Shown in pieces: positions 14,637-64,000 of a DNA stretch of 64,000 nt; position 1 is the stretch's first letter, and each line of letters opens with the position of its first letter. Source of the DNA: Chiloscyllium plagiosum. Taxonomy: Eukaryota. The DNA lies in the NCBI RefSeq assembly GCF_004010195.1, contig NC_057755.1, positions 1,787,306 to 1,851,305 of the forward strand, read 5' to 3'. Below the pieces are notes generated by a model, which was not told the DNA's origin, made no database searches, and saw only the letters and a program-made list of their open reading frames with translations. Both the position numbers and the translations under genes were made by a program.

Positions 14637-14703
14637 CAGAACTACCAATGGAATCAAGGACTCTGTAATATATTTTGCTGGTACTGAATAATGTCAGACA
14701 CAT
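14637..14703 (-). CDS. GPR139-like: GPR139/GPR142-like GPCR, coding exon 1 (partner exon 2 not found in window)
   Basis: 67-nt exon MCLTLFSTSKIYYRVLDSIGSS-G|gtaaac. Same length, phase-1 donor, caaaATG context and YY-x2-L spacing as the exon at 52737; fits the family exon-1 pattern KIYYP.L..IG.PG. Confidence 0.65.
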
Positions 14704-14788
14704 TTTGTATGTGAAGTGAATTATCCCTTTGTTCAGCAGGAGAACTCTCCGAACACAAGTCTAAGGTGGCAAATTCCCAGAGCCGATA

Positions 14789-14795
14789 TTTTATA
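14789..14795 (-). promoter_or_regulatory. Candidate TATA box (TATAAAA)
   Basis: About 85 nt upstream of the ATG at 14703, comparable to the TATAAAA upstream of the paralogous ATG at 52737. Confidence 0.45.
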
Positions 14796-16431
14796 CTGTG
14801 GGAATATGAACCTGACAGCTTCACCTGTTTTCTTTTTATCATACTTTGTATAAATAGATTATGATATTCAAGAAGTTCTTTTTGTGAGATCTTTTTTTTC
14901 CAGAGCTTCAATGCGATTACTCCAAACACATGGAATTTGAAAACTAATGAACTTTTAATCTTCCAACTGAATTCAGACTGCAACAGTTAATTTTTCAGTA
15001 ATGCCATTACCTTGAACTTGTCATTTCAGTGTTCTAGCAATACCCTGCATTACCTTGTAACCATTGAGTGGTGGGCATCTAAATGATGGAATGTCAGCTG
15101 AGGAGTTATGAAATATGATTCATCACTTTGGTGTTATTCAGTACTTAAATCTCAGAGATATAAGCATATCTTTGAAGACTGTTCTGTTCATTTTTTGGCA
15201 TGTAGTTGTCCTTTCTCACTATGGGTTCTAAATGTTTGCTTCTTCGGCCACTGTAAAGGCTGCTCTAAATACCGGGGATATAGGTGCGGTGGTTAGGTTA
15301 AACCATTAATTAATTAAGTATCGAATTCTGAGAGATGCATAGTTTCTGTCATAGTGTGTCACAAAACTAGTAGTTTTTTTTTGTTCTAAAAGCTGTTCCT
15401 TTTGTAACGGATACTGTGACTTAAAATTTGATGCGAATGATGTGGAATGTTTTTTTTCTTTTATTTGATTTGAAAATGTGACAAACAAACGCAGTGATCC
15501 GTGAACATGTGGGTTTTTTGATCCAAACAAAATTTGTAGTACTGTGAGTGAGGTCTTCCCATCAGTATCAGAAAAGGTAACTGGGGAGGACGGGGAGGTG
15601 AAAATAGCTATCTGAGCTTGTACCAGAAGCCTACATACATCGTTTCAGGAACTTAAGAAGGGAACATTGTCAAACCTATATTGAGTTTGACAGGACCAGA
15701 AAAAGTAATTTCGATAGGTGGATAAGAGCTTTAAAATTAGAGCAAACCTACAACGCCCTTAGAGAGATAAATATTTTGGAGTAATTCAAAAATTCATTGC
15801 CTGATGTAGTGTGAACTCATTTGGAAGAGCAGAGAGTTAAACCGGCCAGGTTTGTGGCTCAAGTGGCTGTTGATTATGTGCTGGTACATAAAACACGGTT
15901 TGTTTTCCAAAATCAATTTCAGTCCATAAGGGATAGAAATTTAGGCAAACAGAAACCCTGACGTGGAAAACGAAAGCAGATCTCAGTGAAGATCTTATGG
16001 ATAACTTACCACTGGAAAAAAATAGTCAAAGAGTCAAAGAAGGTAAAAAGTTCCAGTGTTTTCATTGTAATAAAGTGAGCCACATAAAATCACAGTGTTG
16101 GTGGGCTAACAGAAAGCCCGATTTAGGTAAACAGACAAGCCTGGAAATTCCGTTGCCATGGTAAACAGAAAGCAGAGTGGAAGATAAAAAGGTGCATCAG
16201 AGTTTGATTAATGAGAAAGTGCCAGATCAGCTTAAAACATATACCTGCAAATGTAATGATTATTCACATAGGCGAAACGTAGCAGGTAAAAGGTAACAAT
16301 ATTAATAGACCCAGGATCCTCTCAGTCTTTAATGCTCAAGAATGAGGAGATACGTTCTCCTGAAGGACGAGGAGATGTATACTTCTGAAAGACTAACGGT
16401 AATTGAGGGTGAAACAAAAAAAACGCTTATC

Positions 16432-16612
16432 CCACACTCCAAAAATGTGCAGGTTAGGTGAATTGGCCACGCTAAATTGCCTGTAGTGTTAGGTGCAGGG
16501 GTAAATATAGGGGAATGGGTCTGGGTGGGTGCGCTTCGGCGGGTCGGTGTGGACTTGTTGGGTCGAAGGGCCTGTTTCCACACTGTAAAATAATCTAATC
16601 TAATCTAATCTA
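16432..16612 (+). mobile_element. 5'-truncated HE1/V-SINE with (TAATC)n tail nested in the Gypsy element
   Basis: cccacactccaaaaatgtgcaggttaggtgaattggccacgctaaattgcc...gggcctgtttccacactgta matches the 3' half of the SINE at 22057. Confidence 0.85.
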
Positions 16613-20295: not shown

Positions 20296-20455
20296 CCTTG
20301 AGTTGTGTTGTAAAGTTCCTTTAGCAATTCTATTTTGATCAAGCACTGTAATACAGAAGCTGAAGCTGATACTGACCATAAAAGTAATTGGATCTGACAC
20401 TGGATTACATTTTCTCCAAACCAATACAAAAATAAACGTATTCAAAGTCTGCATT

Positions 20456-26040: not shown

Positions 26041-26053
26041 TATGAAGATTAAA

Positions 26054-26590: not shown

Positions 26591-26599
26591 GAAACTTCT

Positions 26600-28400: not shown

Positions 28401-28626
28401 ACCTTGAACTGTGATGTATTTCTCAGCTCCTATTCAAATTCATAATTATGTTGAAAAACATTGTCTGATAGCTGTAGTTTATTTCGCTCAACTTTATTTT
28501 CAGAAACATTTATTATTAGCCAGTTGTCCATGTGTATTCCATACTGCAGAAAGAGTTTAAACAAATTGAAGCTATGTTGAAATAAAGTACACCTGATCAA
28601 CCAAAACTGTGTCGACAGAAGCAGAG

Positions 28627-29516
28627 TTAACGTTTCGAGTCCATCAACTGAATTAATTTCTAAACTGGATTTTCTACGGCATCTTTCAACTAGTCTCTGA
28701 AATTTCTCTGCGTCATCACATAAACGAATGCGTTTGTGAAGCAATTTAAGTCCAGTAGCACATATCCGACTTGTTGAAGGAGAGAAACAGCAGCAGAATT
28801 CAAGAAATAAGCGACATTGCAACAACTTAAGACAAAAATCAACTAGAAAACTATGAAGCTGGCGCAAATGGCAACGAGTAAAACCAGGCAATTCTGTCTG
28901 CTCTCTATCTCTGGGGCATTTTCTATTTTTCTCTGTCCCCTCAGTCCTTTACGCATCTTAATGGCCTCAAAGATGTGTCTGACGGTCAGATCATTAATAA
29001 GGAGAGTTAAAGTGAATGGGAGAAATGGTGTTAAAAGACGTTCAAAGTATTGAAAACTATTCCACAGGGTCATTACCATAACTGGACATGGTATACCAGT
29101 AACATGAAATAGTGTTGCTGGTTGTTACAGGTTTAAATCCAAATTAGTTGGGAATGTTTTATTTTAAATCAAAGAAAATACAGATGTTTACTAGAACTCT
29201 CATCAAAGTTTTTTTTTCTGTGCAATACTTAGATTTCACCTGAAGAAAACAAATGGTGATAATTAGATCAAAATAAAAGGTAACAGTGAACCAGACAGAA
29301 CAATCAATTATCAAGCAGGTCAGGGCATAGCTAGGAGAACAAGCAGGAGTAATTTTCAGGAAACAATGTGCATTATAATAATGTGAACATTTCAAGAGTA
29401 CGATATAAAAACAATCAGCCGGAGATCAAACGCTGCCCTGGTCACCAGATAGCGACTACTGCATTTAGAAAGACTACACCTGCACCTCGCCAGGAATACA
29501 ATTAGTACTAGAGGAG
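28627..29516 (-). pseudogene. GPR139-like: GPR139/GPR142-like class A GPCR, coding exon 2 (TM1 end to TM7), disabled
   Basis: After acceptor ttcttttttgctttaattctcttgcag: PLVLIVFLARCRCSLSKCSSRYLVTRAAFDL / FLKITPACS..DCSVWFTVTFYFDLIITIC..KSKYCTEK..LK*NIP / WNSFQYFERLLTPFLPFTLTLLINDLTVRHI..RKGLRGQ..PEIESRQNCLVLL..SFIVF*..QQVGYVLLDLNCFTNAFVYVMTQRNFRD*LK..NPV*. Matches the chondrichthyan GPR139-like pattern. At least 2 frameshifts, 5 internal stops, DRF changed to DLI. Confidence 0.93.
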
Positions 29517-30689
29517 CTGCAAGAGAATTAAAGCAAAAAAGAAGTTACTGATCAAGCATTGTCTGTGGATGAGCCCTGACTGTAAATACTGACAAAAAGA
29601 AAATTGTTGTTCCATGTCATATAAAGTTTAAAGAACATGAAACACACAAACAAATAATTTGAAGATGAATCATTTAGAGGTTTCCAGATATGAAGGGAAG
29701 AACATGAGAAGTAGATTGCTGACAGATGAATGGTCATTTCGTGAATATTGTTTTGGGCTCAGCAGTGGTTGATGATATTTCCTTTATAAGTTATTCAGAC
29801 TTACTAGAGTTCCCCATAATACCAGAACATCACACTAGAATAACTGGGATCAGTAAAACTAAGAAGAGTAGACAACTAACACATTCATTGATAACAGAAT
29901 TACTGTATTCCTTTTCGGAGCCTGCACAGATCATATTGTTTCCAGAATTGTAAAATCACGCTGTATGAACAATATCACAGGGTATTTGATCGCTCCACCG
30001 TGTCCAGCAATTGAGGTCCGCCATAATAATAATGAACAAATGATCGGGCATTGAATCCCTACCTCATGTAATGTATTGAATATTCTGGCTATCTGATCTA
30101 TGAAGACATTCTGCAGTGAATCCAACCACCGTGTCCCAGGTTAGATACCAACCACAATCAGAAATATTTCAACATTTGAGAACTATCCAAGTTTGTACAG
30201 CAAAGTCTTCACCCAAATATATATATACAGCATTGGTCTTTGCAAATTTCAGTTTCAGTAACCACACTTGATGTGAAATTAATAAAACGTTCCGATCTGA
30301 TGTTAGGGCTCACGCACGAAGCTCCTCTCCTAGGCTCTCGCCTTGGCGATAGTGATCACCCTCTCAGACTTGGTGTGCACAGTGGAGATTGAAAGCCTCA
30401 TGATTTAAACAGCTTTGTCCATGGATCACCAGAATGATGCAGAAAAGACGACCATGTGGCCCGTTGAGTTTGATATGATCCTCCAAAGACCAAGCAGCCA
30501 ATACCACTCCCGTTGGCAGGTTGCTTTTTTAAATCATGGCAGTTAAAGAAAAATGTGTTAATTCCACACAGACGGCAGCACAAGACTGAAATTAAACTCC
30601 GGCCTCTGGCACTGTGAGGCAGGAATGCTAACCATTGTGTCACAGTGCCACTCTTTACACATGTTAATTCAGGCGAATGTTACAGATTG

Positions 30690-31045
30690 TGGAAGACGAT
30701 GGCCTTATGGTCTTATCACCACACTGTTAACTCAGAAACTAAGATAATATTCTGAGAAGCTATGGCCGACATTCACAATGGCAGATGTCGGAATTACATT
30801 TAAAATACAAATATGGGATTAACAATCTAATGACGGCGATGAAATTGTCATCAAGTGTCTGGAAAAATAGCCATATCGATCATTGATATCCTTTAGGGAA
30901 GGTATTCTCTCATCCTTACCTGCTCAGACCTATATGTGACTCCAGACTCAGAATAATCTAGTTGACTCTTACTTACCTTCTGTGCAATTAGGGAAGGGTT
31001 GTAAGTGTTGGTCAACCCAGTGATACCCACATCCTTTTACTGATT
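30690..31045 (+). mobile_element. Decayed tRNA-derived SINE with L2-like tail, in the GPCR intron
   Basis: cctttagggaagg...ccttacctg...atgtgactccagac...gttgactcttact...gcaattaggga; its duplicate lies at about 62370-63140 (-), split by a CR1. Confidence 0.7.
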
Positions 31046-31469
31046 AAGAGAAAGTGGAGCTCCCTGTGTACAGCCAACTCCCCAGTGCACATGACTGCTC
31101 CCTTTTTAGACCATTCCGTGGGATTAGATACACCTGCACTGAGTACATTGTCACAAATATGAAATGAACTACTCCAGACTCAATCGTGTTTCGAAGATTC
31201 AAAGTTGTTACCTGGAGTAGAGAAGTTCAAACTACCTACTAGCACCCAGCACTAACAACTGCGGCAAACAGAGCTGTACCTACGGCTTTGTGACCAGCAG
31301 GAGTTGGGAAATTCAGGTAACTCAGCAAAATAGCTATGAGCAAGCACCCAGCCTTTTGCGCTGAACATTTATCCTCCTCTCTGCTCTATGGCACGTTTTC
31401 TTGAACAATAACCGCCGCTTACATTCAGAGATACCCCCTTGCAGATTTGGGAATCGTGATTATTTTTAA

Positions 31470-32560
31470 ATGCACACATGGAATGTGAGTTTAGTGGGTC
31501 GGGCAGTGTACATTATCTAGCTCCATGTGCTCTTCATTATAACATTGGAGATCTACCTTTGCAATCATCTACATTCCTTGGGGTGGAGGAAAAACCACAC
31601 TGATTTTGGGAGAGTGTTGTAGAATTTGAACCCAGCAAGAATGATGCACTAACAGTACATTTCCGAATCAGAATGACATCTGGCTTGAAAAGGAACTTGT
31701 ATGTGATTACATTTCTATGCATCTTATGATCTCGTTGTCGAGGTGCTGGAGGTCATGGGTTTGCGAAATGCTGCTGAAACAGACTTGGAGTTCCATCCTG
31801 TGAAAGGTGTATTTTGTTCATCACGCATGTTATTAATGAAGGTAATGAGTATTCATTGTGATGCTGTGCACACTGATGAAGTAGCTGTTTGTCTTGCAAA
31901 ATGTGGAGCTTCGTGAGTGTTGTACTCAGTGTGGCATTTGAGTCGCTCTCAGCCAGATGCACGGAGAGAATTCCATCCTACCCGTGAGCCATGCTGTCTG
32001 GATGATGCACATGGATATTAGGGACAGGCGGGTTATTTACTGCTACAGTAATCAGAGTGTCTGATATATTCCTGTGACTATAACACTTGCAAGGTTGGAC
32101 GAGGTAATCCTCCTGTCAATAGTTGACCCAGGTTGTTGACAGTCGTGCATTCAGTGTTTGTAATGTCATAGCAAGCCAATGGAAGACTGGCAGTTTATCA
32201 CTTTCTGAGATTTTTTTTCTTGGTACTTGTGGTACGCCAATGATATTTGTCAATTAACACCCTCCTGGATGTTGCATATAGAAACAGATTTCTTCAATAC
32301 CTACTGAGTCATAGATAGTGCTGATCATTGTGCAATCATAAGCAAGCATCTCTAACTTCGAAATTACGATGGGAGAAATGGCATTGATGAGGCATCTGCA
32401 GAGTTGGGGCCGAGCTCATGGTGCTGAAGAATTCCTGCAGAGATGAACAACAACTGCGATGACTGGCCTATAACAGCCGGGACAATCTCCACTTGTAGTC
32501 AGGATGAAAACGAAGACAGTTGTAATCTCATTGACTCAAGATTTTTGATGGCTCCTTATT
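31470..32560 (-). mobile_element. Decayed L2/CR1-clade LINE 3' portion in the GPCR intron
   Basis: Reverse complement aligns with 59110-61900 (shared tctgcaggaattcttca and ctcacattccatg). Confidence 0.7.
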
Positions 32561-33992
32561 GTGAACCTCTGCTCATAATTTATATGTTGAAGAACTGAAT
32601 ATTTCTTTTCAAGAATTGAAGTTTAATTGTAAAAATAGGCGCAATTAATTGAGGAACTGATAATCAATGCTTCTGTAAATTCAAGTCAAACAATGCTGAG
32701 CTTGGTGGACAGGGGATTTAACATATGATTGTGTTGGAAGGTCAGAGGTAATGGTACAAAAAGCATGCAACGTGTTCCAGAGTATGGGCTTCCAGTAGTG
32801 TCAGAATATTTGTCATTGTCACACTAAAAGAAGAGAAATGTTCACAATGAGAAGAGAAATGCTCACCATTCTGGAAATTGAATTTCTTAGCTTTGTTAAG
32901 ATGTTTAGAGACTAGATAGGACTTTGTCATACAAATGTGGAAATGATATGGGAGAAGCTTGCATTGTATATTGAAGTACCATGTTAAATATTCTGTATTC
33001 TGGTTTGATATTTCTGTGCAATAAACTTCAATGATTGATTATTAGCTTGATTGTTAGCCATAGTCATTATATTGCAAGTAATAAATATTGTTATAAGTTG
33101 AAACAGTCATGTTTTTTCATTCGGATTAGAGTTTTTTATTTTTATATGTTGCCTTAAAACTGACTAATGTACGTTCTTTTTCAAAGCCTGCTCCTCCCAA
33201 GGTGGATGCACACCACAAAGCTAAAGGTAGCGATCTCTGCAAAATTAACTCTGCAAAGATTATGCATTAGAGATTAAACATTGTTAGTCTTAATGGAACC
33301 AGAAACAAATGTGAAACCATAATAACATTTCCAGCTCTATATTCATGCTTGCTGACGTAATTAGTGTAGCCATGTATCACAACTTCTCTTAAACTTGCTA
33401 GAAGATTAGTTAGTACCAAAAATGTTATTTACATTAATACAAAGAGTCTATAGAGCATTTTATTGAAATAGCATTATCGCTCCGCCATTTTCAGTTAATG
33501 AAAAATATCACATCTGTTTATCCCAATGGCACATTTCCCTTTGTAGACTTTGTATCAAACATTTACAATCAGCTTGCGAAGATTTTCCCATTTGCAATTC
33601 AGTGTATATTTGCAAACTACAATAATAGCTTCAGCAGTGGACAGAACAGAAATGAGGAACGTGGAATGAAGCACCACGTGTTTTATGTCGTCATGGTCTT
33701 CGTCACCACTTTGGTAAGATATTCCATTTCATTCAGTTCCACACAAGCAGGTAAATTCTATCATTAGGGATACTCTGCCTTGCACAAGACAACTGAGGTA
33801 AGTTGTTCCACTCAGATTAGTAACTCTTAGTCAATGTAATTTTACTTTGAGAGATGTTCCATAACACGAGCACACTGTGGTTACTTGTTCCACTTTGGCT
33901 CGAACCCACATTTAGTAAAATTATTAACAATCATATAGTGTAAGTAATTAGGATTTTGCAGATATGTTAACAGAATTTGCTAAAAGACTTAC

Positions 33993-34049
33993 CAGAAATA
34001 CCAATAATGACAAGAATGGTGCCAGACAGCTTTGCCTTGGAAGATGCAT
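33993..34049 (-). pseudogene. GPR139-like: GPR139-like coding exon 1 (frameshifted), partner of exon 2 at 29516
   Basis: ggttgtttcataaacaacaacATGCATCTTCCAAGG...ACCATTCTTGTCATTATTGGTATTTCTG|gtaagt aligns with 52716-52809. It is 57 nt rather than 67 nt, so the TILVIIGIS-G frame is out of phase with the ATG. Intron 33992-29517. Confidence 0.85.
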
Positions 34050-34640
34050 GTTGTTGTTTATGAAACAACCGTTCCCTTCCTGCTGCTGGCAACCTATCAG
34101 AATTGGAGAATTCTTTCATAATTTGAGCAAACATATTTTTAAATATTATGTGGCATCTTCACTAGGAAAACTTCAATTCACCTTGAATTTGTTTTCTTTT
34201 AAAAAGAGACATTGCAACAACAGGTTTATTTTAATAATGTCGCCTCATTGAGATTTTCGTCTCTAATTAAGTACAAAAAAGACTGGATATATCTTATCCT
34301 GTTAGGTCTCAATGTCAATTCCAATTTGCCTTCAAACAAGAACATGATTTCCATCATTCTGATCAATATCTAAACACCTCATTGCAGTGATGACCTTCTT
34401 TCTGATGAAGCAATTCAGACTTTCAATACCTCATGTTGTAGACGTCCTCCAGACCTGTTCAGGTAAACACTGTATCCCATTGCTTCTCTTGTCAATTCAG
34501 TTGTACAACTCATTTGGGAAATTCTATCTGTAGTCGAGCACACCAATAGTGAACCTAAAGGTGACAAACAACAAGTGGAACTTACACTAATTTATATTTT
34601 CTCAAAACAACGTATGGACAGAACTTTACCTTCAGGATTC
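34050..34640 (-). promoter_or_regulatory. Upstream/promoter region of the GPR139-like pseudogene
   Basis: Colinear homology with 52110-52736 (+), including the exact 19-mer attaaaataaacctgttgt (34235-34217 vs 52539-52557). Confidence 0.6.
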
Positions 34641-36190
34641 TAGAATGACAGAATCGTATCGATCAGAAGAGGCCGTTCAGTCCATCATGATTGTTTCGCC
34701 CCAGACTCTTGAAGGTTATGACATTTCACGTTTTCATCCAAGTAGTTTTTAAGGCTGTGAGGTTTCACATCTTATCTGGCATTCCACCCAGAACAGTGCA
34801 GCCTTCTGTCATCCCCAGTGAGAAGACATTTCTCCATGCTGCCTCGAAACGTCCAGCCTTTCAGCTTAAAATAATGCATCGTTGTTATGACCCTTCGACT
34901 AAGGGGAGCAATTCATTTATATTCACCCATTCCACGCTACTCATAGTCTTACACATCCCGATCTCTTCTCTAAAGAAAGTACTCTGAGCTTATGAAGACT
35001 CTATCTTCATTGGTAAATTGCTACACACAAAGCAACATTATGGGTAATCTCCTGTGCATTCCCTGTAATACAGTCACATCCTTTTCATGGTGTTGTGACC
35101 ACAAGTGCAAATAATACTCTACCTGTGGCCTAACCAAATTTCTATAGACCTTGGGATCTTGGTGTCCATGTACACAGATCTCTGAAAGTTGCCACCCAGG
35201 TAAATAGTGCGGTGAGGAAGGCATATGGCGTACTGGCTTTTATTGGTAGAGGAATTGAGTTCCGGAGTCCTGAGGTCATGATGCAGTTGTATAAGACTCT
35301 GGTACGGCCGCATCTGGAATATTGTGTGCAGTTTTGGTCGCCATACTATAGGAAGGATGTGGAGGCATTGGAACGGGTGCAGAGGAGGTTTACCAGGATG
35401 TTGCCTGGTATGAAAGGAAAATCGTATGAGGAAAGACTGAGGCACTTGGGGCTGTTTTCACTAGAGAAAAGAAGGTTTAGGGGTGACTTGATTGAGGTGT
35501 ACAAGATGATTAGGGGGTTAGATAGGGTCGACAGTATGAACCTTTTCCCGCGTATTGAGTCGGGTATTACAAGGGGGCATAGCTTTAAATTAAGGGGGGG
35601 TAGATATAGGACTGATGTTAGGGGTAGGTTCTTCACTCAGCGAGTCGTTAGTTCATGGAATGCCCTGCCAGTAACAGTGGTGGACTCTCCCTCTTTATGG
35701 GCATTTAAGAGGGCATTGGATAGGTATATGGAGGATAGTGGGTTAGTGTAGTTTAGGTGGGCTTGGATCGGCGCAACATCGAGGGCCCAAGGGCCTGTAC
35801 TGCGCTGTATTCTTCTATGTTCTATGTTCTATGTTCTACCTCCAAAAGGATCTTCCTGTTGTTATAATCTAAGCCTCCACGATAAAGTCATGTGTCCTGC
35901 TTGCCTCCTTACCAACCACATTTACCAGTCCTGCCCTGTTTAGCGATCTGTTGGCAATGACGTCAAGATGTTTCTATTCCTCTGACTTTCCTAGTGTGCT
36001 GCCATTCTTTCGTTGTCTTAGGATTTTAGCCAAAGTGCATCACCTCACAATTACCAGGATTCAATTTCACCTGCCGCTGATTTGACCATCTGACCAAACT
36101 GTTTGTATCTATTTAGCCCAATACCATAATCCTCACTGTCAAGCAATTAGTCAATACTTGTGTCATCATGAAACCTACATATCAACCTCC
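34640..36190 (-). mobile_element. Old CR1 3' portion upstream of the GPCR pseudogene
   Basis: YRNLVRPQVEYYLHLWS..KDVTVLQGMHRR, FHDDT, CEVMHFG on the minus strand; split by a younger CR1. Confidence 0.8.
35145..35838 (+). mobile_element. Young 5'-truncated CR1 with open ORF2 C-terminus
   Basis: 179-aa uninterrupted ORF (LYKTLVRPHLEYCVQFWSPYYRKDVEALERVQRRFTRMLPG...FFTQRVVSSWNALP) and a perfect (TTCTATG)n tail. Confidence 0.95.
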
Positions 36191-49842: not shown

Positions 49843-49844
<2 letters not shown>

Positions 49845-51539: not shown

Positions 51540-52112
51540 CTGCAAAGGCAGAAGGACAGGTTAAGAGGGCAGTTAAAAAGGCATTTCTTTCGGAGTCGAG
51601 ACGTAGATTATAAGAGCAAGGAGATACTGTTACTGCTGCACTCAACTTTATTAGACCACAGTTGGTGGATGCAGTTCTGGCGACTTCACAACAGGAAGGA
51701 TGTGATTGCACTAGAATAAAGGAGATTCACGATGATGTACTTGGTGTGTAGCTATTTAGCTGTGAAGAGCGAGGTTTGGTAAGTTTGGAATGTTTTCATT
51801 ACAGCAGAGATCAGGCTACACATGACTGTGAACGGATGGATATGGTGGACAGATAGCAGTTGTTCCCATTTTTCATAGGTGCCATAATTTCAAGCTGAAA
51901 GGTTTGGAGGAGCCATGAGGAATAGTCTTCTCACTAAGAGGATGGAAGGGGCCTATTGAGACAGTAAACCACAAAACATTTACAAAGAAAAAAAATATAG
52001 CTATCGGTTAATTGCTGGAAAGTAGTATTAAAATGTATTTAGTCTAATTTTGGCAGGACAAACACAATGGGCCAAAGGCCTCTTGTGTTCTATGTTTTTT
52101 CTGCAATTCTAG
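51540..52112 (+). mobile_element. Old CR1 3' portion upstream of the plus-strand GPCR exon 1
   Basis: YKSKEILLLLHSTL..MQFWRLHNRKDVIALE; tail caattctagaat at the same position relative to the ATG as the CR1 at 34640. Confidence 0.75.
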
Positions 52113-52633
52113 AATTCTGATGTTAAGGTAATGAATTAGTTTATTTTACTCTTTTTTTGAGGAAATATCCCCCGGTGTAAGTTTCAGCCGTTGTCAGTAT
52201 CAGCTTCTTGGTTCTGTATTGTTTGCTTGTTCACAGATGAAATTTCCCAAACAAGTTGAAAAACTGAATTAACAAGGAAAGCAGTGGTGTAATACAATGC
52301 AGGAGAACAGCTTTAAACATAAAATATTGAACATCTGAGTAGCCTCAGCAAAATGATGGTCATTACTGAAAAGAATATCAAAAGATATCAGTATTGATGG
52401 TTCTCATAGTGTGTAAAAAAATGCAAGTATCGTTGTGTGAAGACAAATCATGATTAACATTTGAGACCGAAGAGGAACAGCTTGATCCAGCCTTTGGGAG
52501 TATTCAGACACAGTCTTAAATCTCAAACATATCACTTCATTAAAATAAACCTGTTGTAATCTGTTTGCTCAGAAATGTATTTTCAGAAATAAGGAAAGTG
52601 TAATCATATATTCCCAGTGGAGATATCACACAA

Positions 52634-52640
52634 TATAAAA
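52634..52640 (+). promoter_or_regulatory. Candidate TATA box (TATAAAA)
   Basis: About 100 nt upstream of the ATG at 52737. Confidence 0.5.
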
Positions 52641-52736
52641 CAGCGTGAAACTGTCTCTTCTCCAATTAAAAGTTAATTTTCCAATTACGTGAGATTTCTC
52701 CAAAAGGAAGGGCGAGGCTGTTTCACAAACAACAAA

Positions 52737-52803
52737 ATGTATTTTCCAAGAAGAATGATCTTAAAAGTATACTACAGCATCCTTCCCATTATTATTATTC
52801 CAG
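52737..52803 (+). CDS. GPR139-like: GPR139/GPR142-like GPCR, coding exon 1 (exon 2 predicted beyond 64000)
   Basis: 67-nt exon MYFPRRMILKVYYSILPIIIIP-G with consensus donor CAG|GTAAGT, phase 1, matching the phase of exon 2 at 29516; flanks homologous to the 34049 copy. Confidence 0.82.
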
Positions 52804-52949
52804 GTAAGTGTAGCAACAGCTTAAGTTATATAAATTTCTGTATTTCTACTTCATGCCTGTTAATTACTGTATTTCCATTTAGCAAGACATCTACCAATAC
52901 CTACCGATAGCGTCGTCACTTACTGACGTCAAAGTAAATAGTTTGCCAA

Positions 52950-53688
52950 TTCGGAGACTCCTCAGTAATGTGTAGCAGTGTCTGTTCCTTTAGACTGTGC
53001 GGAATGGATTTGCACTGTGGCCACATCGACAGAGTTTGGTGAAGAACTGGCCCTGGTTGGTCAGTAAAATGTTTAACAAACCATACATACTCTCTCTGTG
53101 CAGTTCAAAGCCTGCGATTTTGTAACAACTCACTTCTTAGTGACATCTGGTGTTTTCCATTCCTTGATGTAAAGATACTTTGTTGGTGGATCTTGCTCTG
53201 ACAACTTGGTTGAAATGGGCGCCCAGACATTACATGTGTAAAGGTTGTGTTAAGCAGGTCGTTATGGAGTAATAAGTGAGTGTCAGTACAAATGGTGTCG
53301 ACTATCTTATGTGTTTTTGTCAGTCAGTGAATATATTGAACCATGAACTTTGTGAGGACCGATTGCTTGGAGTTGTGTTGAGTGCAGAGTTCCAATTATG
53401 ACGTGTATTATTGTATTATTTGATTGTCGACAACGGCAAGTGAGTTATGCCATTTCTAAAATGATGCAAAATATTGTGGTGCAGAGTTTAATTGGACAAA
53501 CACTGAGATCGGAGTCGTGCACTGCCACAGAGATTCAAATAACTGTCCATCAGGAATTGTTCTCCCTTACGCTTTGGTGTTGTTATCCTTTGATGTTCTC
53601 TGAACATTAATGGTTTATGTGTATTTTCTTCCAGTTGCATTCATTGGGATTATCATTTTGTCTTTCACTATCAAACTTTAGTTATTTA

Positions 53689-53756
<68 letters not shown>

Positions 53757-55060
53757 TGTGCTTTTGGTTTCACTGTGAGACCGCAACTTTGTGAAATCTG
53801 TTTTTGCACCTGACCCATAGAGCTCAGAATGATGGAGATTGGTGGTACAGCAGGACTTTTCACTGATGAAAGAGAAATTGGTTTGGGGTGACTGATGTGA
53901 CGTTTAAGACATTTCATATTGTTTTACTGCTCTGAAACTCCAATCGTGATCAAGGACATGCAGCCTTATGGAAGGAAAGTCAGCCCTGCTGTTGTGAATT
54001 CCATTTGACCTGGTGTTCAACTTTGAGGGAATCGGTGAGTTAGAAACTATATCAGAGTCACCAGCTGATTCATAGTCCATCAGCTGCGCTCTGCTAAAAG
54101 AACTTGAATCTCCTGATGACCCTGATGGAAATTATGCTCTTTGCCTCATCACGTGGGGCATCATTGCACCCATTGCCACTCAGAATATGTATCTGAACAG
54201 TGATTATGATTTATGCCTCAGGGACAGATTTATTATACTTTATGTCTGTAGTTCAAGATTGTGCTGGGCATTTTTTGCTTATATTGTTCTTCGAAATGTT
54301 GTTACATATTCCGAGACTCTGGATCATTGAAAAGCAGGTGTGATTGTGTATGACTGCTCGGCTGTGTTCACTTTGCGGGAAGTCATTCATGAGTAGAACA
54401 TGGGTTGGTTGAGGATGGTCATTCACGAAACGGACCCCAAACTGGACAGTTCATTATGTTCAGGTCTGCTGGTTGGATGTTGGTTCTGAGGAAGGATCTT
54501 TCCACTTTCTATCCACAGATGCTGCCAGACCTGCTGAGCTTTAGCAGGAAGTTCTGCTTTTTTTCCCTGATTTAAAGCATCCACAATTCTTTCAGGCATT
54601 GTTTGGCATTGTTCGTGTTGTTTCATCGCAGTTTCAAGGCGAGATCGTCATTGAAGCCACATTGACGTTCTCAGTTATCTCCGACTGTGTTGTGTCTATT
54701 GTGGGATGGAAAGTATGGGAGTGGGAGTGACATAATACCAAAGGAACTTTTCGCCAGCCGCACTTGGTCGTTTATGAAGGTTTCCAGTAATGATATCACC
54801 AGACTGAACATTCCCACAATGTATTCTAAAATTCAGGGCTGCTACATCAACACTGCTGGCTGCGACATATCAGGCACAACGTGTTTTACATCAGGGCAGT
54901 AACATCGTCGTTCAAATTGTTTGATGAAATACTGTTCTGTTTCTTCAATCCAAAATGGTTCACTTGGAAACAATGCTGTTGATGTGCCCGGTGTCAAGAT
55001 ACTGATCAAACTTAACTGGTTTGCTAATAAGCCTTTGTACGATTTAAAGAACATTCAAGA
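52950..55060 (-). mobile_element. Very old Gypsy RNase H-integrase remnant in the intron
   Basis: Minus-strand fragments in pol order: KFDQYL (about 55010), FHQGHQEIQ (about 54125, H2C2 region), VMSGRP (about 53225). Heavily decayed. Confidence 0.4.
53681..53756. repeat. (ATT)n microsatellite
   Basis: Direct reading. Confidence 0.98.
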
Positions 55061-55189
55061 AGATATGTACAATATCATGAAATTTCTACAGTGCAGACAG
55101 AGGCAATTCTGCCTATCGGGTCTGCACTGACCCTCAAAGGAGCATCCCACTCAAAGGCCTCAAAGGCATAATCTGCATTTACCATGGCT

Positions 55190-55737
55190 ACTCCTTGGTT
55201 AACTCACCTCCTGACTCCCAAATCCTATCCACCATCTACAAGGAACAAGTCATAGAATGTCTCAAGGGGCATCATGGAATATAACCCAACCAACCTGGCT
55301 GAGTCTCTCTCCAACACTCAAGAACTTTGACGTCATCAGAACAAACCAGATCACTTGATTGACATCAAATCTACACATGTCCACTCTCTTAACTACTGAC
55401 ACGCAAAAGTTGCACTGTTTACCATCGAATAGACAATGCCTCCGACAGCCAGGACAACAAATATCTGACAGGACAAGAGCAGTAGATACATGAGAACACC
55501 ATCATCTGAAAGTTCCCCTCCACGACACTCTCCATTTTGATTTGAAAATATATCGGGCCTCTTTCAGTGTCAGTCGATCAAAATGATGAAATTCCCTTCT
55601 TTATGTCATTGTGGGTCTGCGTACAGCAGGTAATTACAGCTGTTCAGGAATGTGCCTCAGCAACACCTCTCAAAAGCAACTAAGGATGGGTAATAAATTC
55701 AGGCCAGCGATGTCGACATCCCACGAATGAATAAAAA
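55190..55737 (+). mobile_element. L2/CR1-clade LINE 3' end
   Basis: cacctcctgactcccaaatcctatccaccatctacaagg...taaggatgggtaataaat...catcccacgaatgaataaaaa. Confidence 0.75.
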
Positions 55738-56674
55738 GTAAATATTGTGCACAGTGAAGATAACTCTAATCGGAATTTCTGATCCAGCGTTTTCAGGTTT
55801 CTGTAAATGCAGAATTGTAGTAAATGTATACCACTGAAAGGAGAATAATCGTGAGCTCAACAATTATTATGACTGGGAAAATCCTTGACTGTAGAACTGC
55901 ATTACATGTAGATCAATAGCCTGAGAGGAACTCTCGATTCCAGTGGTGATGTAATTCAGTGAGCATCTTTCAATTACAATTTTACCAAGTGTGGGTTCCA
56001 AGTAAATGGTGAATAACTAACCCAGTGCCCAAGTGTTACTGGAAACATCTCCTAAAATGAAATTATACTAATTGGATACGACTAACTGGACGTGAACAAT
56101 TTACCACAGTAACCACGTAAGGAAGAATATCTCTGATTATGGAATTTCACTGTTTGTAGGGAACTAAAAGAAATGCAATACCTAGCCACAATTAGGGCCA
56201 TAATGATCTTGAAATTTGTGGTGTTTCAGTTATACTGCAATCATCATTTCTGTTCTGTCCAGTGATGGAGCTGTTAATTTGTAATTTATCGTTTGTAAAT
56301 ATACATTAGATTTCAATGGAAAAACCTATGCAGGTGGTTGTATATGTCTGATGCTACGTTTATGAGTTAAATTGCCCCAATGGAGATAAGTAAATGTGAG
56401 ACATTTTTTAATAAAGGGAAAGTAGCAAAACAATAAGGGTTATTCAATAAAATACCCTAAGTACATGTTATGTTTCCTCAAACAATATTAATAATATTTT
56501 AGTGACTGATTAATCTTCCAGAAAGTTTTGGACAAGTTGTCGAACATAGCTACTCTATTATATGATCTCGGCATTAATAAGAAAGATATGGAGCTGGCAA
56601 CGTTGACGCAATTTTACATCTACATCTGATTAGATTTCAATTAACAATTTTCAAAACTATAATTCATGCCATTT

Positions 56675-57189
56675 TGTTATGGATCAGGCGGGACATCCCA
56701 CGAATATTTTAAAAGATAGCTCGACCCTAACTTTTGCTTATTTTAAAGGCAGATTAGAAATGGGATTTCCCGATAAAGAAGCAGTGCCCCGAAAGCTAGT
56801 ACCTCCAAATATTAACCTGTTGGACTATAATCTAGTATCGTATGATGTTTAGTATTGGAAAACCCAACCGACCCAATACATAACTTAACTAATCAATTGT
56901 TTCAATACCGTAACATTCCATAAGCACGCTGCTTAAGCAGAAAGTTAAATTAATTTCAAACACAGATTTTTACAGGCAGGAGAGATCGACATCCAGACGG
57001 AGATTTCGGAGAAAGTCAGATGAATCCTTTACAGAAGCTTGCAACACTTTTCGACTCCAACGTCTTGGCAATGGAAGAACTGGCCTCCCGCCTTCCATTG
57101 TTAAACTAGATTCTTCTGCACTTCTGCTTTCATGAATAATCTTCAAAAAAAGACAAAAATGACCTTGTTAAAGTGACAACATCATCACA
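56675..57189 (-). mobile_element. Solo LTR
   Basis: TG...CA ends (tgttatgg / catcatcaca); absent at the homologous intron position near 33270; flanks attt/cttt. Confidence 0.7.
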
Positions 57190-58006
57190 CTTTCCACAGT
57201 TAGTTCTCCAGAAATCGTTGCCCATCACTTTGCGGCATGTGACCTCAGTGATGAGGAAAGAGTTTTGGTGAGGATTATAAATCTGTCTTGATTAAGGCAA
57301 TATAAAAAAGTACAACCTATAAATGGTATTTCAAATGTGTTTAAACCCGAAATCAGTGTTCTAACTAAATGAACTGTCGTTGTGATCTCCCTTATTCATG
57401 GAAATATACTTTCTATATTTTGTATTGCTCAATTCTTTGAAGTTTCATGCCCCACATTTAGATGTATTCACTTTCTCTCAGCGAATTTCAAGATAGAGAG
57501 GTAATGCTTTTTCAGACGTAGTGCATTAAATATAGAAATGTATGACTGATTTATTTTAGCTTCAACATAATATTATTCTGCCCGCTCTTGGAATACTTTA
57601 TGTCAGTAATACAGCTCATAACTCCCAGTTCCATAATTGTAGCATTTAGCTTCCTTTAGAGTGTAACGACAGATATTTTGATTTTGTCAGAAGAGCAAAC
57701 TCTGTCGCACATTGTCGATTTTTTTTGGTGCACAGACCTTTCAACACAACTACATGTAATTTCTAAAGTCTTAACTCAGGATTGTTAGATTTGAATTTAC
57801 AGTAGCATGAATCATACTTATCTCAATCAGGTGCTTTTAAAAATGTATTTTCATTGCAATTCAGAAAAGTTCAGCTCTTAAACGTATACATTGTAAATAC
57901 ATATTCACAATAAGGAGCCATCAAAAAGTTGGAATCAATGAGATTAAAACCTTGTTTCATCTTGGCTACAGGTGACGAAGATTATGACTTTTGGAAATCA
58001 ATCATC

Positions 58007-58661
58007 TGTTATGAACCAGGGCAAGCCCTTCAAAACATTTCAAGAAGGTAACCCAGACCTAACGTGCCTAATTGTTTTAAGCAGATGTAAGGTGGATATT
58101 CAAGGAGTGATACAGCTGGTCAAACCACTCAGTTTTAATCAAATCAGAATTTATTTACAGACTACCAAATTAAACAATAGCACAGGACAACAGAATTTAA
58201 TAACAACTACTTGAAAACCCGACTGATACGATATCTCCTGCAACTTAACAGAGAGCTGTTCCAATGTCACACAACGTACAAAAAGACACCTCATTGACAA
58301 AAAAGATATATTCAAGCGCAGGTTCTTACTGGATAGACAGATTGCAGAGGGGATCAGCCAGGGGTCATTGGCTAAAACATGGAACCTCTTTCTGCCCAGC
58401 AGCATCTCGGGGTCCTCAGCTAAAATTAAACTAAACCAGAAAAAAAACTGATCTGGGAGATCTAGCCATTCCCCTTTCATTACAACTGTTTTAAAATAAA
58501 CAGAAAACCCAGTTTGCCCGATTGTTCCCTTTGGTAGTCTTTGTTAGCCATACGGGAATTGGCCTACAGCCAGACAAATTGGAACCTCTACCTTTTATAA
58601 CCCCTTTTGAAAAAAGAAAACAAAGACAACATAACGTCGTTAAAGGAGCATCATCATCACA
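58007..58661 (-). mobile_element. Solo LTR
   Basis: tgttatgaacc...catcatcaca ends; near-TSD catc/cgtc; same family as 56675-57189 and 63737-64000. Confidence 0.75.
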
Positions 58662-58689
58662 CGTCTCAGCCATCATACAATGCGTCATA

Positions 58690-59110
58690 ATTTCATAGAT
58701 CTGTATGGCATGGAAATGTACGCTTTGGTCCAACTTGCACGCGCAACCAGATAGCCCACATTAATTAAGTCCCATTTTCCAGCATCTGGTCGTTATCCAT
58801 CTAAAACTTTCCAATTCATATATACCTAACGAGAGGCCTTTTAAATATTGTAATTGCACAAGCCTAAATGACATATTCTAGGAGATCATTCCATGCACCC
58901 ACCACCTTCTTCGTGAAAACAGTTGCCCCTTAGATCCTTTTTATTTATTTATCCTTGCAACTAAAACATATGCCATCCTGTTTTGAGCTCCCACACCCGG
59001 GCAAAAGACCTTAGCTATTCATCCTATCCAAGATCTTCAAGACTTTATAAAGGTAACCCCTAAGCCTCCCATGCTCCAGGGAAAATAGCCCCAGCTTATT
59101 GAATTTCTCC
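58690..59110 (-). mobile_element. CR1 3' fragment
   Basis: Reverse complement reads LGLFSLEHGRLRG..FFTKKVVGAWNDL and a 3' UTR. Confidence 0.8.
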
Positions 59111-59479
59111 TTCAAGTGCTTCTGCAGGAATTCTTCACGCTTGTGTCCTTAAACCCAAAATGTGCAACTACCTTATCAATTCCCTTCCCTCCATAGTAAT
59201 TTCCAAATTTCAGAGATTTGCTCGTTATTGCACAATGTTCAGCACCATTTACTCATTAGATCACGAAGAGATCTGTGTCCATATACGATGAGATGACCAC
59301 CAGCTCAGGCTGATAATTGATAAGTACCGTTCGCATCCAGAAGCACCAGACAATGACCATCTCAAAACGAGACTATCTGCGTGGCTCCTATTAGCATACT
59401 AAGATCAAAGTTTGTGCGAAGATTTGTAGCTCGGGTGCTCGTTGTTGTGGTTCTGTTCGCCGAGCTGGAAATTTTTGTT

Positions 59480-59519
59480 GCAAACGTTTCGTCCCCTGGC
59501 TAGGCGACATCATCAGTGC
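59480..59519 (-). ncRNA. Minimal type I hammerhead ribozyme motif (inverted copy)
   Basis: Reverse complement GCA-CTGATGA-tgtcgcctagccaggggac-GAAAC-GTT-TGC. Confidence 0.7.
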
Positions 59520-61125
59520 TTGGGAGCCTCCTGCGAAGCGCTTCTTTGATGTTTCCTCCGGTGTTTATGGTGGTCAGTCCCTGCCGCTTCCGGTTGTCAG
59601 TTTCAGCTGTCCGCTGTAGTGGTTGGTATATTGGGTCCAGGTCGATGTGTTTGTTGATGGAGTTTGTGGATGAATGCCATGCCTGTAGGAATTGCCTGGC
59701 TGTTCTCTGTCTGGCTTGCCCTATGATAGTAGTGTTGTCCCAGTCGAATTCATGTTGCTTGTTGTCTGTGTGTGTGGCTATTAAGGATAGCTGGTCGTGT
59801 CGTTTCGTGGCTAGTTGATGTTCATGTATGCGGATTGTTAGCTGTCTTCCTGTTTGTCCTATATAAGAAGAAACCATGATATCATTCGACGTGACGGCAC
59901 TGCTCACTTCGATTGACAAAGCCCTAGCCAGAGAAACAATAGCCAACCTACTGGACATACAGAACAGAAAACAGGACGCTGAACCTATCAACAAAGACGG
60001 CATACTTAAACTACTGGACTTGTGCCTCACAACACACTTCAAATTCAACAACCAGATATATGAACAAATCAACGGAACACCCATGGGATCACCAATCTCG
60101 GGACTCATAGCAGAGGCAGTTATGCAAAGGTTAGAACAAACAGTCCAACCACAAATTCAACCCAAACTCTGGGTCAGATATGTCGATGACACGTTCGTAA
60201 TCATTAAAACACGGAAATAGAAAACACACACGTTCATCAACGCCACACTCACAGGAACCCGATTCACGAGAGAAGAAGAAAGGGATAGCCAACTCCCATT
60301 CCTAGACGTGATGGTACAGAGAAGACTGAACGGAGAATTCACCACAAGGGTATACAGGAAAGCCACACACACAGACCAAGTCCTAAACTATGAAAGTAAC
60401 CACCCCAACACACACAAACGAAGCTGCATCAGGACACTATTAAAAAGGACCACAACACACTGCAGTACACCAGAACTGCAAAAAGAAGAAGAGGAACTCC
60501 TACACAAGGTATTCGCCAAAAACGGATACCCGCGCAACTTCATCAACAGATGCCTAAGAGAAAGACCACGGAATGAGGACATACCACAACCAAAAGGACT
60601 AGCCACACTACCATACATCAGAACTGACAGCCAGACTACTGCGAACCCTAGGACTCATAACGGCACACAAACCAACAGCCACGCTCAGACAACAACTCAC
60701 CAGAACGAAGGACCCGATACCCAACATGAGCAAGACGAATGTAGTGTACAAAATACCATGCAAGGACTGCACTAAACACTATTTAGGACAAACAGGAAGA
60801 CAGCTAACAATTCGCATACATGAACATCAATTAGCCACGAAACGACACGACCAGCTATCCTTAATAGCCACACACACAGACAACAAGCAACATGAATTCG
60901 ACTGGGACAACATTACTATCATAGGGCAAGCCAGACAGAGAACAGCCAGGCAATTCCTACAGGCATGGCATTCATCCACAAACTCCATCAACAAACACAT
61001 CGACCTGGACCCAATATACCAACCACTACAGCGGACAGCTGAAACTGACAACCGGAAGCGGCAGGGACTGACCACTATAAACACCGGAGGAAACATCAAA
61101 GAAGCGCTTCGCAGGAGGCTCCCAA

Positions 61126-61165
61126 GCACTGATGATGTCGCCTAGCCAGGGGACGAAACGTTTGC
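61126..61165 (+). ncRNA. Minimal type I hammerhead ribozyme motif in the Penelope pLTR
   Basis: Core CTGATGA (61129-61135) and GAAA (61155-61158), stem II gtc.cct/agg.gac, palindromic AACGTT stem III, stem I GCA/TGC. Minimal hammerheads are a known feature of Penelope pLTRs. Confidence 0.72.
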
Positions 61166-62514
61166 AACAAAAACTTCCAGCTCGGCGAACAGAACCACAG
61201 CAGCATACTATGGTATTACCATAATTGAATGCACGACTATTAACAACCTGTGCTGACCACTGACAAGTAAATGACCTTGTCCAGGTTTATAACTGATGGG
61301 GAAACAGGAGTATATCAGGTATGGTGATTGTTGCAGCAATTAGCTCCCCACCTACCTCACCAATCCATGTCCACAATCCAGAAATCGTAGCTCAGAGGTA
61401 GAATGGAATGCTGTCCGAATGTCTGGAAAACTGCAGCTCCAACAACACTCAAAATCTTAACATTGGGCAGGACAAACCGCCGGCTGATTAGCGTTACGAT
61501 CACCACATTCAGCACCCACTCCCTTCACCAACAATAGCATGACCGATAATGAATACAATTCTGTGAAAATGCAAAACGTAACATGCCAAGTCTCTTTCGA
61601 CATCCACTCAGAACAACATGACATCAGGCTCTTAGAACAACAAGGGCAGCAGATGCATGGAAAGGCCATCATATGCAAGTTCGCTTTCAAGCCTGATTTT
61701 ATTCTGAGCTTGAAATGCAGCATTGCTCTGTAACAGTTGCAGTGTAAACATTTTACAGCTCTCCCCCCAAAACACAGGGTTTTCCTGCACATCAGATAAT
61801 GCAGATGTTCAAAAATGCTACTCTCCAGCACGATCACAAAGACGATTAGAATTAGACACCGAGTGTTGGCCTCGCCAGCAAAGCTCACATTCCATGAGTA
61901 CACTTCAAAATAATCCTTATTTCCACATCTGAAAGAAAACATCTCTGAACCTGAGGAGTGCTTATTGACCAAATCAGTGTTCCACATCGTAGAGAACCAG
62001 CCAAATGTCGAAGGGGAAAGGAGAGAAGCTTGGTATCGAGGACTTGCCTGATTCAAGGTGCCAGCTATCCATGGCAAAGCTCATGTTGCCTATTTTAATG
62101 AATTTACCATCTATTACTGGTCACAAAACCAACAGACAGATCCTTATGCCTCATTTGTCTTTGGTCGATGTAATGGTGATTTCAATTTCGGAAAACTACA
62201 TTAAATCAAGCGGAGTATCTCTTAGCTTCTAAATTGGGGCAATTTTCGGAGTTGCATGTTTGTGACAATTAAGGTGATGTGAGGATTTTCAGTCATAAGG
62301 AGTTACCTAAAAATAAGAGCAGTCATCTGTACTGGAGTGTTGGTTGTGCATGGGGAAATCTCCATTTTCATTTATTTATTCAACTGATGCTGGTGTCACT
62401 GGCTAATCCAGCAATACTGCCCATTCCTAATTGCCCAGAGGGCAATTAAGAATCACCAGATTGTCATCGCTCTGGAGTCACACGAAGGCCATATCAGGTA
62501 AGGATGACACATTA

Positions 62515-62900
62515 GACCACGAGACCATAAGGCTATAAGACACAAGAGCAGAAGTGAGGCTATTCATTCCGTCAAGTCTGCTCCACTATTCAGTCATAGC
62601 TAATAAGTTTCGTAACCCTATTCTCCCGCTTTCTCCTTGTAACCCTTGAAAATCTTGATACGCCAGAACGTATCTATCTCAGTCTTAAATATCTCTTCCT
62701 TTTGTGGCAATGAATTCAATAGGTTCTCCATTCTCTGGCTGAAGAATTTTCTCCTTATTTCCGTTCTGAATGATTTTCCCAAGTATGTTCTCTGGTGTCC
62801 TAATCTCACATACCAATATGTAAATCTTCCAAACAACCACTCTCCCAGGCCATTCAGAATTCTGCAAGTTTCAATTAGATTGCCCCTCTAATCGTGTATA
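62515..62900 (-). mobile_element. CR1 3' fragment inserted in a SINE
   Basis: SFRTEIRRKFFSQRMENLLNSLPQK with a (tcttatgg)-like tail; absent from the duplicate SINE at 30690-31045. Confidence 0.8.
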
Positions 62901-63736
62901 ACTCAGAATCCTTAAGAATTCTTCATGATTATCTTCTCTAAAGGACATTCGTGAATACGATTGTCATCAAATGTTGGGAAAAAAAACACAACTTCATGGT
63001 TATCAATAATGCAGATTAAAATGCAGATTTTTAATAGAATTCAAATTTCACCATCTGTCCCGGTGCCCTTTGAACCCAAATCCCAACAACATTAACTCAG
63101 TCTGAAAAATAGCAATAAATCCATTAAGGCCATCATCTCCCTAATCTTTAGCATTGGCCTGAATTCGAATAATCAACCTCTGATCCCAAGCAATATTCCA
63201 ATACTTGGGTCTCCAGCAACAAGCTATGGTACAATTCTGGTGCTCTATGCAGAAAATGTGGGTTGAACTACGGGGATTTCTCACTCCAGCATGTTCTCTG
63301 AATCTGGGAGGCAGGTCTCCAAGCACTAGTAGAAGGTTGAGGAGAGGAGCTTGGGTGCATGACTCTGGACATCAGGCAGGAGATTTTGCTTCATTCAAGA
63401 TAACATGCCTAATTTCTCAACTGTGGATTTTCAATGACCAATGCTGCACGGATTTAGACTTTATCTGGATGAGAGCTGTGGTATACAATCTTGAACATGT
63501 AGGAGGAGCCCTGACTAAATGTTGAAGTTTTCCTGATTGCGGTAGCAATCTAACCTGTGAAATAACATAGCTCAGAATGTCAGGATGTTCAATCCCACAA
63601 GCTCAGAATTTTATCATTTGATTTTTATCTCTTACCATGGAATGTGTCCATTCCCAGTCATTGTGAAGTGATTCCAAGCCCTGTGCTGTAGCTCAGGTGG
63701 AGTGGATGTCCAATTCTAGAGGTACCTTCGGTCATG

Positions 63737-64000
63737 TGTGATGATGCTGCTCTTTTGTAAAGGTTATGTTTTCCACAGTTATTTTTTTCACGAGGAGTCA
63801 TAAAGGCAGATGTTCCAGTATGTCTGCAAGTACTTACTTCAAACTGCCTTAATACATTTTATTAAACATGCGCACAATGAAAGGGAAGTGGCCAGTTCTC
63901 CCAATTCAGGCTTTTCTTCCTGTTATGGTTTGGTTGGTTTTCACAAACAGTCTGTTAAAAGCTGCAGGTCAAGTTTTAGCGAGGAACTCAAAGAAGCAGT
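63737..64000 (+). mobile_element. Start of an LTR running off the window
   Basis: tgtgatgatgctgctc start matches the reverse complement of the 58661 end; internal aatgaaagggaagtggccagttctccca shared with 58450-58480. Confidence 0.75.

Follow-up and report, generated by a model that had tools for sequence, protein, structure and literature searches.

Three copies of a large shark and ray class A receptor family in a 64,000-nucleotide stretch of the Chiloscyllium plagiosum genome

The closest described receptors and the shark and ray family

Human GPR139 (PDB 7vug, 9m42) and GPR142 are G-protein-coupled receptors (GPCRs) that belong to class A and have seven transmembrane (7TM) helices, with tryptophan at 6x48 and no proline at 7.50, where GPR139 has phenylalanine (PMC8807744). 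The tryptophan and phenylalanine (Trp/Phe) site of GPR139 includes F109, H187, W241 and N271 (PMC5430874) as well as R244, the arginine at 6x51 being special to GPR139 and GPR142 (PMC8807744). Orphan receptors of coelacanth and fishes near GPR139/142 have been named GPR210A/B by Rinne et al. 2019, whose main text mentions coelacanth, gar and fishes and does not contain the word 'shark' (PMC6504862). The stretch of Chiloscyllium plagiosum DNA analyzed here (contig NC_057755.1, positions 1,787,306 to 1,851,305; 64,000 nucleotides (nt), hereafter the window) contains three copies, g1, g2 and g3, of a large shark and ray family of class A GPCRs, one of them broken, one probably broken and one undecided.

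The C-terminal half of g2 had a single match, at 45% identity, to a horn-shark protein called 'probable GPR139', and the first exons of g1 and g3 match the N-terminus of shark and ray models of that name. With an intact horn-shark member as the query, 1969 of 2376 candidates were matched at E ≤ 0.001, a set that may include other GPCRs and of which only the best 120 were characterized; among these best 120, 119 were named shark proteins and 93 were clusters (90% identity) of Heterodontus francisci, 76 of them on nine contigs, including 34 on a single 74.5-Mb contig. A profile search of 50%-identity representatives returned 131 at E ≤ 1e-30, and all of the 20 mid-range representatives that were identified came from sharks or rays, with no chimaera among these 20. 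The initial annotation had stated that cartilaginous-fish annotations contain many 'probable GPR139' models and had proposed a clustered, pseudogene-bearing birth-and-death family; both statements were borne out, the latter by the many horn-shark paralogues on few contigs and by at least one dead copy, g2, among the three in the window.

Family genes have two coding exons, and full-length models of 324-326 amino acids are present in several species. The intact member is a class A GPCR (PF00001, 87 bits against a cut-off of 30.5), whereas the g2 fragment by itself gets no further than E 0.009. Pfam assigned only 7tm_1, with weak Srx matches in two of the five proteins scanned, and GPR139 and peptide receptors head the family's sequence matches in the PDB; neither result points to OR, TAAR, V1R, V2R or T2R. 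In databases the members are called 'probable G-protein coupled receptor 139' or, in some cases, 'neuropeptides capa receptor-like' or 'vasopressin V2 receptor-like'. The g2 copy is a decayed relative (45% identity, clade support 100/99) of models such as XP_038636253-6 (catshark) and XP_048419836 (zebra shark); these carry automatic names only and, unlike them, the window copies are broken or incomplete. The canonical short first exon stands at the start of 79 of the 168 shark models examined, and the remaining models have foreign N-termini, some of which match retroelement DNA of the window (P0116 against 3451-3900, E 1.6e-14), so that automatic annotation seems often to miss the 67-nt exon.

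The initial description of these genes as GPR139-like holds in part. Family profiles put GPR139 first among solved structures (E 6.5e-15, and E 1e-35 with outgroups added), but with a single intact shark sequence as the query, human GPR139 comes only after the prolactin-releasing peptide receptor, at E 7.8e-9, so the sequences place the family on the GPR139 branch without making it GPR139 itself. Amphibians, sturgeon, coelacanth, teleosts and amphioxus have relatives nearer than GPR139. The ten lowest-scoring full-length representatives examined were five proteins from a salamander, a coelacanth, two teleosts and an amphioxus, a further one with no organism shown, and four unnamed records. Querying with the salamander protein gave 25 matches among 1675 candidates, namely 20 amphibian clusters, no two of the same species, a sturgeon protein and four proteins of sharks or skates (32-33% identity), with no amniote among the 25; from this the amphibian and sturgeon orphan would be single-copy.

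In the maximum-likelihood tree (54 rows, built without GPR139 or GPR142, with five rows placed with sharks unnamed), the shark and ray family (88/79) and the amphibian-sturgeon gene (100/100; for example XP_069092602 of Pleurodeles) are sisters (100/99), and coelacanth and teleost orphans (for example XP_005988539) and amphioxus branch outside both. The g2 copy falls in the main shark and ray clade (100/99) on a long branch (1.29 against a median of 0.39). The amphibian, sturgeon, coelacanth and teleost orphans possibly correspond to GPR210A/B, and FMRFamide-receptor-like clusters are the atlas neighbors of the shark and ray family.

In open-licence PubMed Central and bioRxiv text, no description of the family was found. 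Neither 'GPR139' nor '139' occurs in the main texts of a vertebrate chemoreceptor survey (PMC10869828), a shark olfactory paper (PMC10116579) and the genome paper on catshark senses. Within the text searched, the papers combining GPR139 with a term for cartilaginous fishes were a review that uses the two in unconnected passages (PMC12294341) and a snail genome paper, and sharks go unmentioned in a review of GPR139 (PMC12208981). The family proteins already stand in public annotation under automatic names; the present analysis contributes their sister group, a comparison with the site residues of GPR139 and the test of pocket variability with an orthologue control.

A variable predicted binding pocket and a conserved signaling face

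The residues of the GPR139 site (F3x33, H5x43, W6x48, N7x38 and R6x51) were mapped through HMMER alignments. Tryptophan at 6x48 is kept in all 93 horn-shark paralogues and the other site residues are mostly lost: 6x51 is tyrosine in 65 and arginine in 2, 3x33 is arginine in 38, cysteine in 15 and phenylalanine in 12, 5x43 is aspartate in 72, and 7x38 is mainly phenylalanine, tyrosine, tryptophan or leucine, with asparagine outside the six commonest residues. The activation of GPR139 by Trp and Phe, which the initial annotation had set beside a possible amino-acid or peptide sensing role, could therefore not be transferred to the family, as F3x33, H5x43, R6x51 and N7x38 are not kept. Among the amphibian orthologues, all 20 have K6x51, F3x33, N7x38 and W6x48, and seven other proteins of bony-vertebrate and amphioxus type all have arginine or lysine at 6x51. 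The amphibian orphan, which is named 'probable GPR139' without being GPR139, keeps these four residues, has asparagine at 2.50 and is a candidate third aromatic-ligand receptor.

Across the 93 horn-shark paralogues, mean entropy was 1.53 bits at 28 pocket positions (class A numbering, placed by motif anchors and fixed before counting) versus 0.73 at 160 other TM positions (p 1.8e-5), and 0.28-0.37 in the intracellular loops. The 20 amphibian orthologues, serving as the control, gave the opposite pattern, with 0.07 in the pocket versus 0.46 elsewhere in the TM helices (p 1.9e-5), at a comparable mean identity within the two sets (0.81 in amphibians, 0.77 in horn shark). The contrast was retained in 20-sequence subsamples of the horn-shark set (1.33 versus 0.50) and when the comparison was with the non-pocket positions of the extracellular half (p 0.003). 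The signaling motifs D2.50, DR, W6.48, N7.49 and Y7.53 are retained in 91-93 of the 93 paralogues. A high pocket entropy together with conserved intracellular loops and motifs is the pattern of a repertoire whose ligands change and whose signaling stays, and the repertoire-like character suspected in the initial annotation gains a hypervariable predicted pocket, with about twice the entropy of other TM positions.

Position 7.50 carries no proline in the horn-shark paralogues and is threonine in 91 of 93. Unlike GPR139 and GPR142, the shark family is multi-copy, with a variable pocket and with P6.50 absent in the horn-shark set. This proline, usual in TM6, is outside the six commonest residues in the 93 paralogues. 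All 20 amphibian orthologues retain it, as do 7 of 48 diverse shark and ray proteins; activation mechanics may differ. Acidic residues are conserved at 2x57, 3.37 and 5x43 in the main clade, a hint that ligands could be basic, for example amines or basic peptides. The amphibian and sturgeon orphan, with one cluster per species in 20 amphibians and an invariant pocket, contrasts with the multi-copy shark and ray family in both respects.

A structure model of the intact member has a 7TM fold with a predicted local distance difference test score (pLDDT) of 90.7; a first model, from 25 close sequences, reached a pLDDT of 49 and was not used. In fold searches the intact member tied among peptide-type class A structures and GPR139, which ranked fifth in one search and scored Z 27.5 against a best of 28.6 in the other, so that the family is not placed thereby. 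Human GPR139 is distant from the shark member, with 22% structural identity.

Anatomy of the three copies

Coordinates of the copies in the window (position 1 is its first letter)
Feature	Positions	Strand	Description
g1 exon 1	14637..14703	-	67 nt, with ATG at one end and a phase-1 GT donor (GTAAAC) at the other; N-terminus and first half of TM1
g1 5' leader	14704..14800	-	TATA-like TATAAAA at 14795-14789; weak similarity to g2/g3 and to two shark gene-model leaders
AATAAA hexamers, three	28478..28514	-	115-150 nt past the g2 stop; poly(A)-signal-like by sequence
g2 exon 2	28627..29516	-	remainder of TM1, the helices up to TM7 and the C-tail; disabled by two frameshifts and five stops; intact shark members are about 45-46% identical
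g2 intron	29517..33992	-	4.5 kb, phase 1, GT-AG
g2 exon 1	33993..34049	-	57 nt, donor GTAAGT; frameshift through a 10-nt deletion (by alignment)
g2 upstream region	34050..35140	-	paralogous to the g3 upstream region
g3 upstream region	51644..52736	+	TATA-like TATAAAA at 52634-52640
g3 exon 1	52737..52803	+	67 nt, open, donor GTAAGT
g3 intron	52804..64000	+	nine blocks of 60-68% identity lie in the same order as in the g2 intron; enlarged by insertions

The three first exons lie 19.3 kb (g1-g2) and 18.7 kb (g2-g3) apart, with g1 and g2 head-to-tail and g2 and g3 head-to-head. When the 7335 possible phase-1 donor sites in the window were scored position by position against 52 homologous exon-1 peptides, g3 came first, g1 second and g2 fourth, so the trio exceeds chance; a DNA profile from g2 and g3 only recovers g1 at E 2.6e-5. 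These two results confirm the initial reading of three paralogous first exons at 14703(-), 34049(-) and 52737(+), about 19 kb apart, two of them (g1 and g3) of 67 nt with a phase-1 donor. The site ranking third, 24097(+), was considered as a fourth first exon and set aside as a chance match, being without upstream similarity.

The motif K-[IV]-YY-x2-L that had been noted in the two divergent open exon-1 peptides is indeed common to both; outside it, the g1 peptide shows signs of decay. The peptide has four residues absent from all 79 homologues, mostly horn-shark sequences (in a leave-one-out comparison no homologue reaches four), and its TM1 hydropathy of 0.19 lies below the minimum of 1.29 among them. 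For these reasons the g1 exon, though open, appears decayed and the gene is probably dead, and the divergence of the exon-1 peptides, earlier taken as a sign of diversification, is not evidence of adaptation. The g3 peptide has two residues unseen in its homologues, a level that 3 of the 79 reach, and normal hydropathy; on this sequence evidence its status, intact or dead, is left undecided.

The sole second exon in the window is assigned to g2, whose first exon also carries a frameshift. Its acceptor AG ends at 29517 and its coding sequence runs from 29516 to the stop at 28627 (minus strand), with frameshifts near 29409 and 29065 and stops at 29161, 29146, 28845, 28692 and 28662; the arginine of the DRY motif is replaced by leucine and the W6x48 codon by a stop. 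This agrees with the initial call of one full but disabled 7TM exon. No further exon 2 was detected in the window by a protein hidden Markov model or by a DNA-level profile with a reversed-sequence control. In the 14.6 kb downstream of g1 (1-14636) no exon 2 was found, nor a g1 intron collinear with those of g2 and g3. Three candidates in this context were rejected: a W-x-C-x2-KP-x2-Y look-alike near 11780(-), touching a repeat, scored only E 2.1 and E 17, an open reading frame at 12709-13053(+) is not a GPCR, and a g1-g3 match (12888-12591 and 58034-58329) lies in a g3 insertion absent from g2 and was read as a repeat rather than intron homology. An intact reading frame of the family was not found in the window, with g2 broken and g1 and g3 lacking exon 2 within it.

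The nine collinear blocks of g2 and g3 begin in the upstream region at 35140/51644, cross into the intron and reach 29941/63720, and collinearity continues weakly to about 29786/63836; the two copies stem from an old inverted duplication. Because the g2 acceptor sits 270-425 nt beyond the last collinear blocks, exon 2 of g3 is predicted to begin near 64100-64150, some 100-150 nt beyond the window. In the 150 nt upstream of g2 and g3, 71% of aligned columns are identical (62% counting gaps), similar to the intron blocks, and since the upstream identity lies near the intron level, the 'shared promoter' previously read as a sign of co-regulation reduces to inherited sequence. Upstream similarity of g1 to g3 and to g2 is weak, with scores reached by 2 of 500 shuffles, and the g1 leader matches the upstream leaders of two shark gene models (P0083 and P0082) at tblastn E 7.5e-4 and 0.002.

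The g3 intron contains a retroelement at 59443-61202 with a reverse-transcriptase piece (PF00078), which we take to be Penelope-like; it is bounded by a 423-nt inverted repeat of 98% identity (59443-59865 and 60780-61202), and related copies lie at 9310-9641 and 36575-37582. A near-perfect palindrome (94%) of 198 nt at 2661-2857, with single arms at 7398-7492 and 26053-26147 (92-95% identity), resembles a small non-autonomous transposon. Between g2 and g3 there is a diverged tandem repeat of about 69-nt period (39385-39808 and 41695-42373), missed by Tandem Repeats Finder. A word search of public sequencing runs with 51900-58600 returned eight DNA or unlabelled runs with at least half of the words, and no RNA run was listed; raw reads of two single-cell RNA runs are available for this species.

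Possible roles of the family and their biological meaning

The sequences make it very probable that the family is a birth-and-death repertoire with diversified ligands. A low-copy chordate orphan on the branch of GPR139, GPR142 and FMRFamide receptors, with a GPR139-like basic residue at 6x51, would have been multiplied by repeated local duplication in sharks and rays; intact copies would diverge in the pocket and others would die, as g2 did and g1 probably did, copies being born and dying as in odorant-receptor clusters. Every intact copy would recognize its own external chemical, and all would use a common G-protein route for signaling, with sensory or barrier cells as the most likely site. 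For this explanation as a whole, a receptor repertoire for outside chemicals with a shared G protein in such cells, we see the chances as about even, and we are equally divided over the chemosensory role in itself, which family size, pocket pattern and invertebrate class A precedent would suggest. That this could be an undescribed chemoreceptor family of hundreds of genes, larger than OR, TAAR, V1R and V2R together in sharks and rays, is a tentative proposal for which the chances fall somewhat short of even.

The precedent comes from lophotrochozoans, in which class A expansions that are lineage-specific and show high pocket entropy have been read as chemosensory (PMC11886862), and from the expanded FMRFamide-like class A sets of molluscs (PMC11589774); these share lineage specificity, variable pockets and likeness to FMRFamide receptors with the shark family but arose independently of it. 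The vertebrate chemoreceptors (OR, TAAR, V1R/ORA, V2R/OlfC and T2R) are likewise clustered, evolve by birth and death and combine a variable pocket with a conserved signaling face, but they are of separate ancestry, whereas the shark family has two coding exons and a sensory role proposed by analogy. Cartilaginous fishes have a mean of 43.8 olfactory receptor genes, the smallest olfactory repertoire among vertebrates (PMC10869828).

Several points weigh against a chemosensory repertoire. Entropy is not the ratio of non-synonymous to synonymous substitution rates (dN/dS), the 93 sequences are interrelated and were picked by closeness to one query, the clusters may in part represent alleles, isoforms or dead genes, and the 28 pocket positions rest on class A numbering placed by motif anchors. 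Monophyly of the shark and ray family is supported at 88/79 only, and none of the three window copies is demonstrably intact. Variable pockets are also typical of immune-type repertoires such as the formyl-peptide and Mas-related receptors. Furthermore, catshark olfactory neurons are reportedly almost all of the Go/TRPC2 microvillous type with robust V2R expression (PMC10116579), and a nose dominated by V2R-type microvillous neurons (PMC6368271; PMC11979771) would have less need for another nasal receptor family; the 50 genes most specific to the catshark brain-plus-olfactory library include no GPCR, although the same holds for V2Rs (PMC11979771).

An immune or barrier-surveillance repertoire, with copies on leukocytes or mucosal cells sensing microbial or damage peptides, would fit the variable pocket and conserved G-protein face equally well, and the fold is of the peptide-receptor type. 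MAS1 and its relatives are reported missing in cartilaginous fishes (PMC8455134), so that another family could substitute for them. Nevertheless, immune GPCR expansions known to us comprise tens rather than hundreds of genes, and immune genes were not seen in the window; we consider this role unlikely. A neutral proliferation, in which a duplication-prone cassette leaves mostly dead or dying copies and the pocket varies from lost ligand constraint, would account for the state of the window copies (one dead, one probably dead, one undecided), for the canonical first exon in just 79 of 168 shark models and for the retroelement-rich region. It is quite unlikely given the numerous full-length models of 324-326 residues across several species, and general relaxation would not leave the intracellular loops and signaling motifs so much better conserved than the pocket.

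Internal receptors of brain, gut or gonad, with endogenous peptides or metabolites as their ligands, might also have multiplied with that role kept. The nearest characterized relatives, GPR139 and the invertebrate FMRFamide/MIP receptors, are internal (PMC12208981), and the invariant pocket of the amphibian sister gene is what one fixed ligand would lead us to expect; a few endogenous ligands, however, need no hypervariable pocket in at least 93 paralogues, which makes such a role rather improbable in the sharks. True GPR139 duplicates sensing tryptophan and phenylalanine would agree with the database names, with GPR139 being the solved receptor closest to the family profile and with the kept W6x48. 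This idea is largely refuted and very improbable, in view of the single-sequence match of only E 7.8e-9, the closer relatives in amphibians, sturgeon, coelacanth, teleosts and amphioxus, and the horn-shark pocket (R6x51 in 2 of 93, F3x33 in 12, D5x43 in 72, asparagine outside the six commonest residues at 7x38).

The window copies, none demonstrably intact, are poor test objects, and the family itself has been hidden by a misleading automatic name. The whale-shark paper describes a 'relative paucity' of GPCRs in cartilaginous fishes (PMC8455134), and the GPR139 term is absent from the 24 text files of its supplement that were searched; the at least 93 distinct horn-shark members near one query clash with this GPCR-poor picture. 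If the family is sensory, it would be a new vertebrate chemoreceptor class and would explain chemical sensing in sharks despite their roughly 44 known smell receptors; if it is immune, it would be a new innate repertoire. The single-copy amphibian sister, with its GPR139-like pocket residues, offers a handle on the ancestral ligand.

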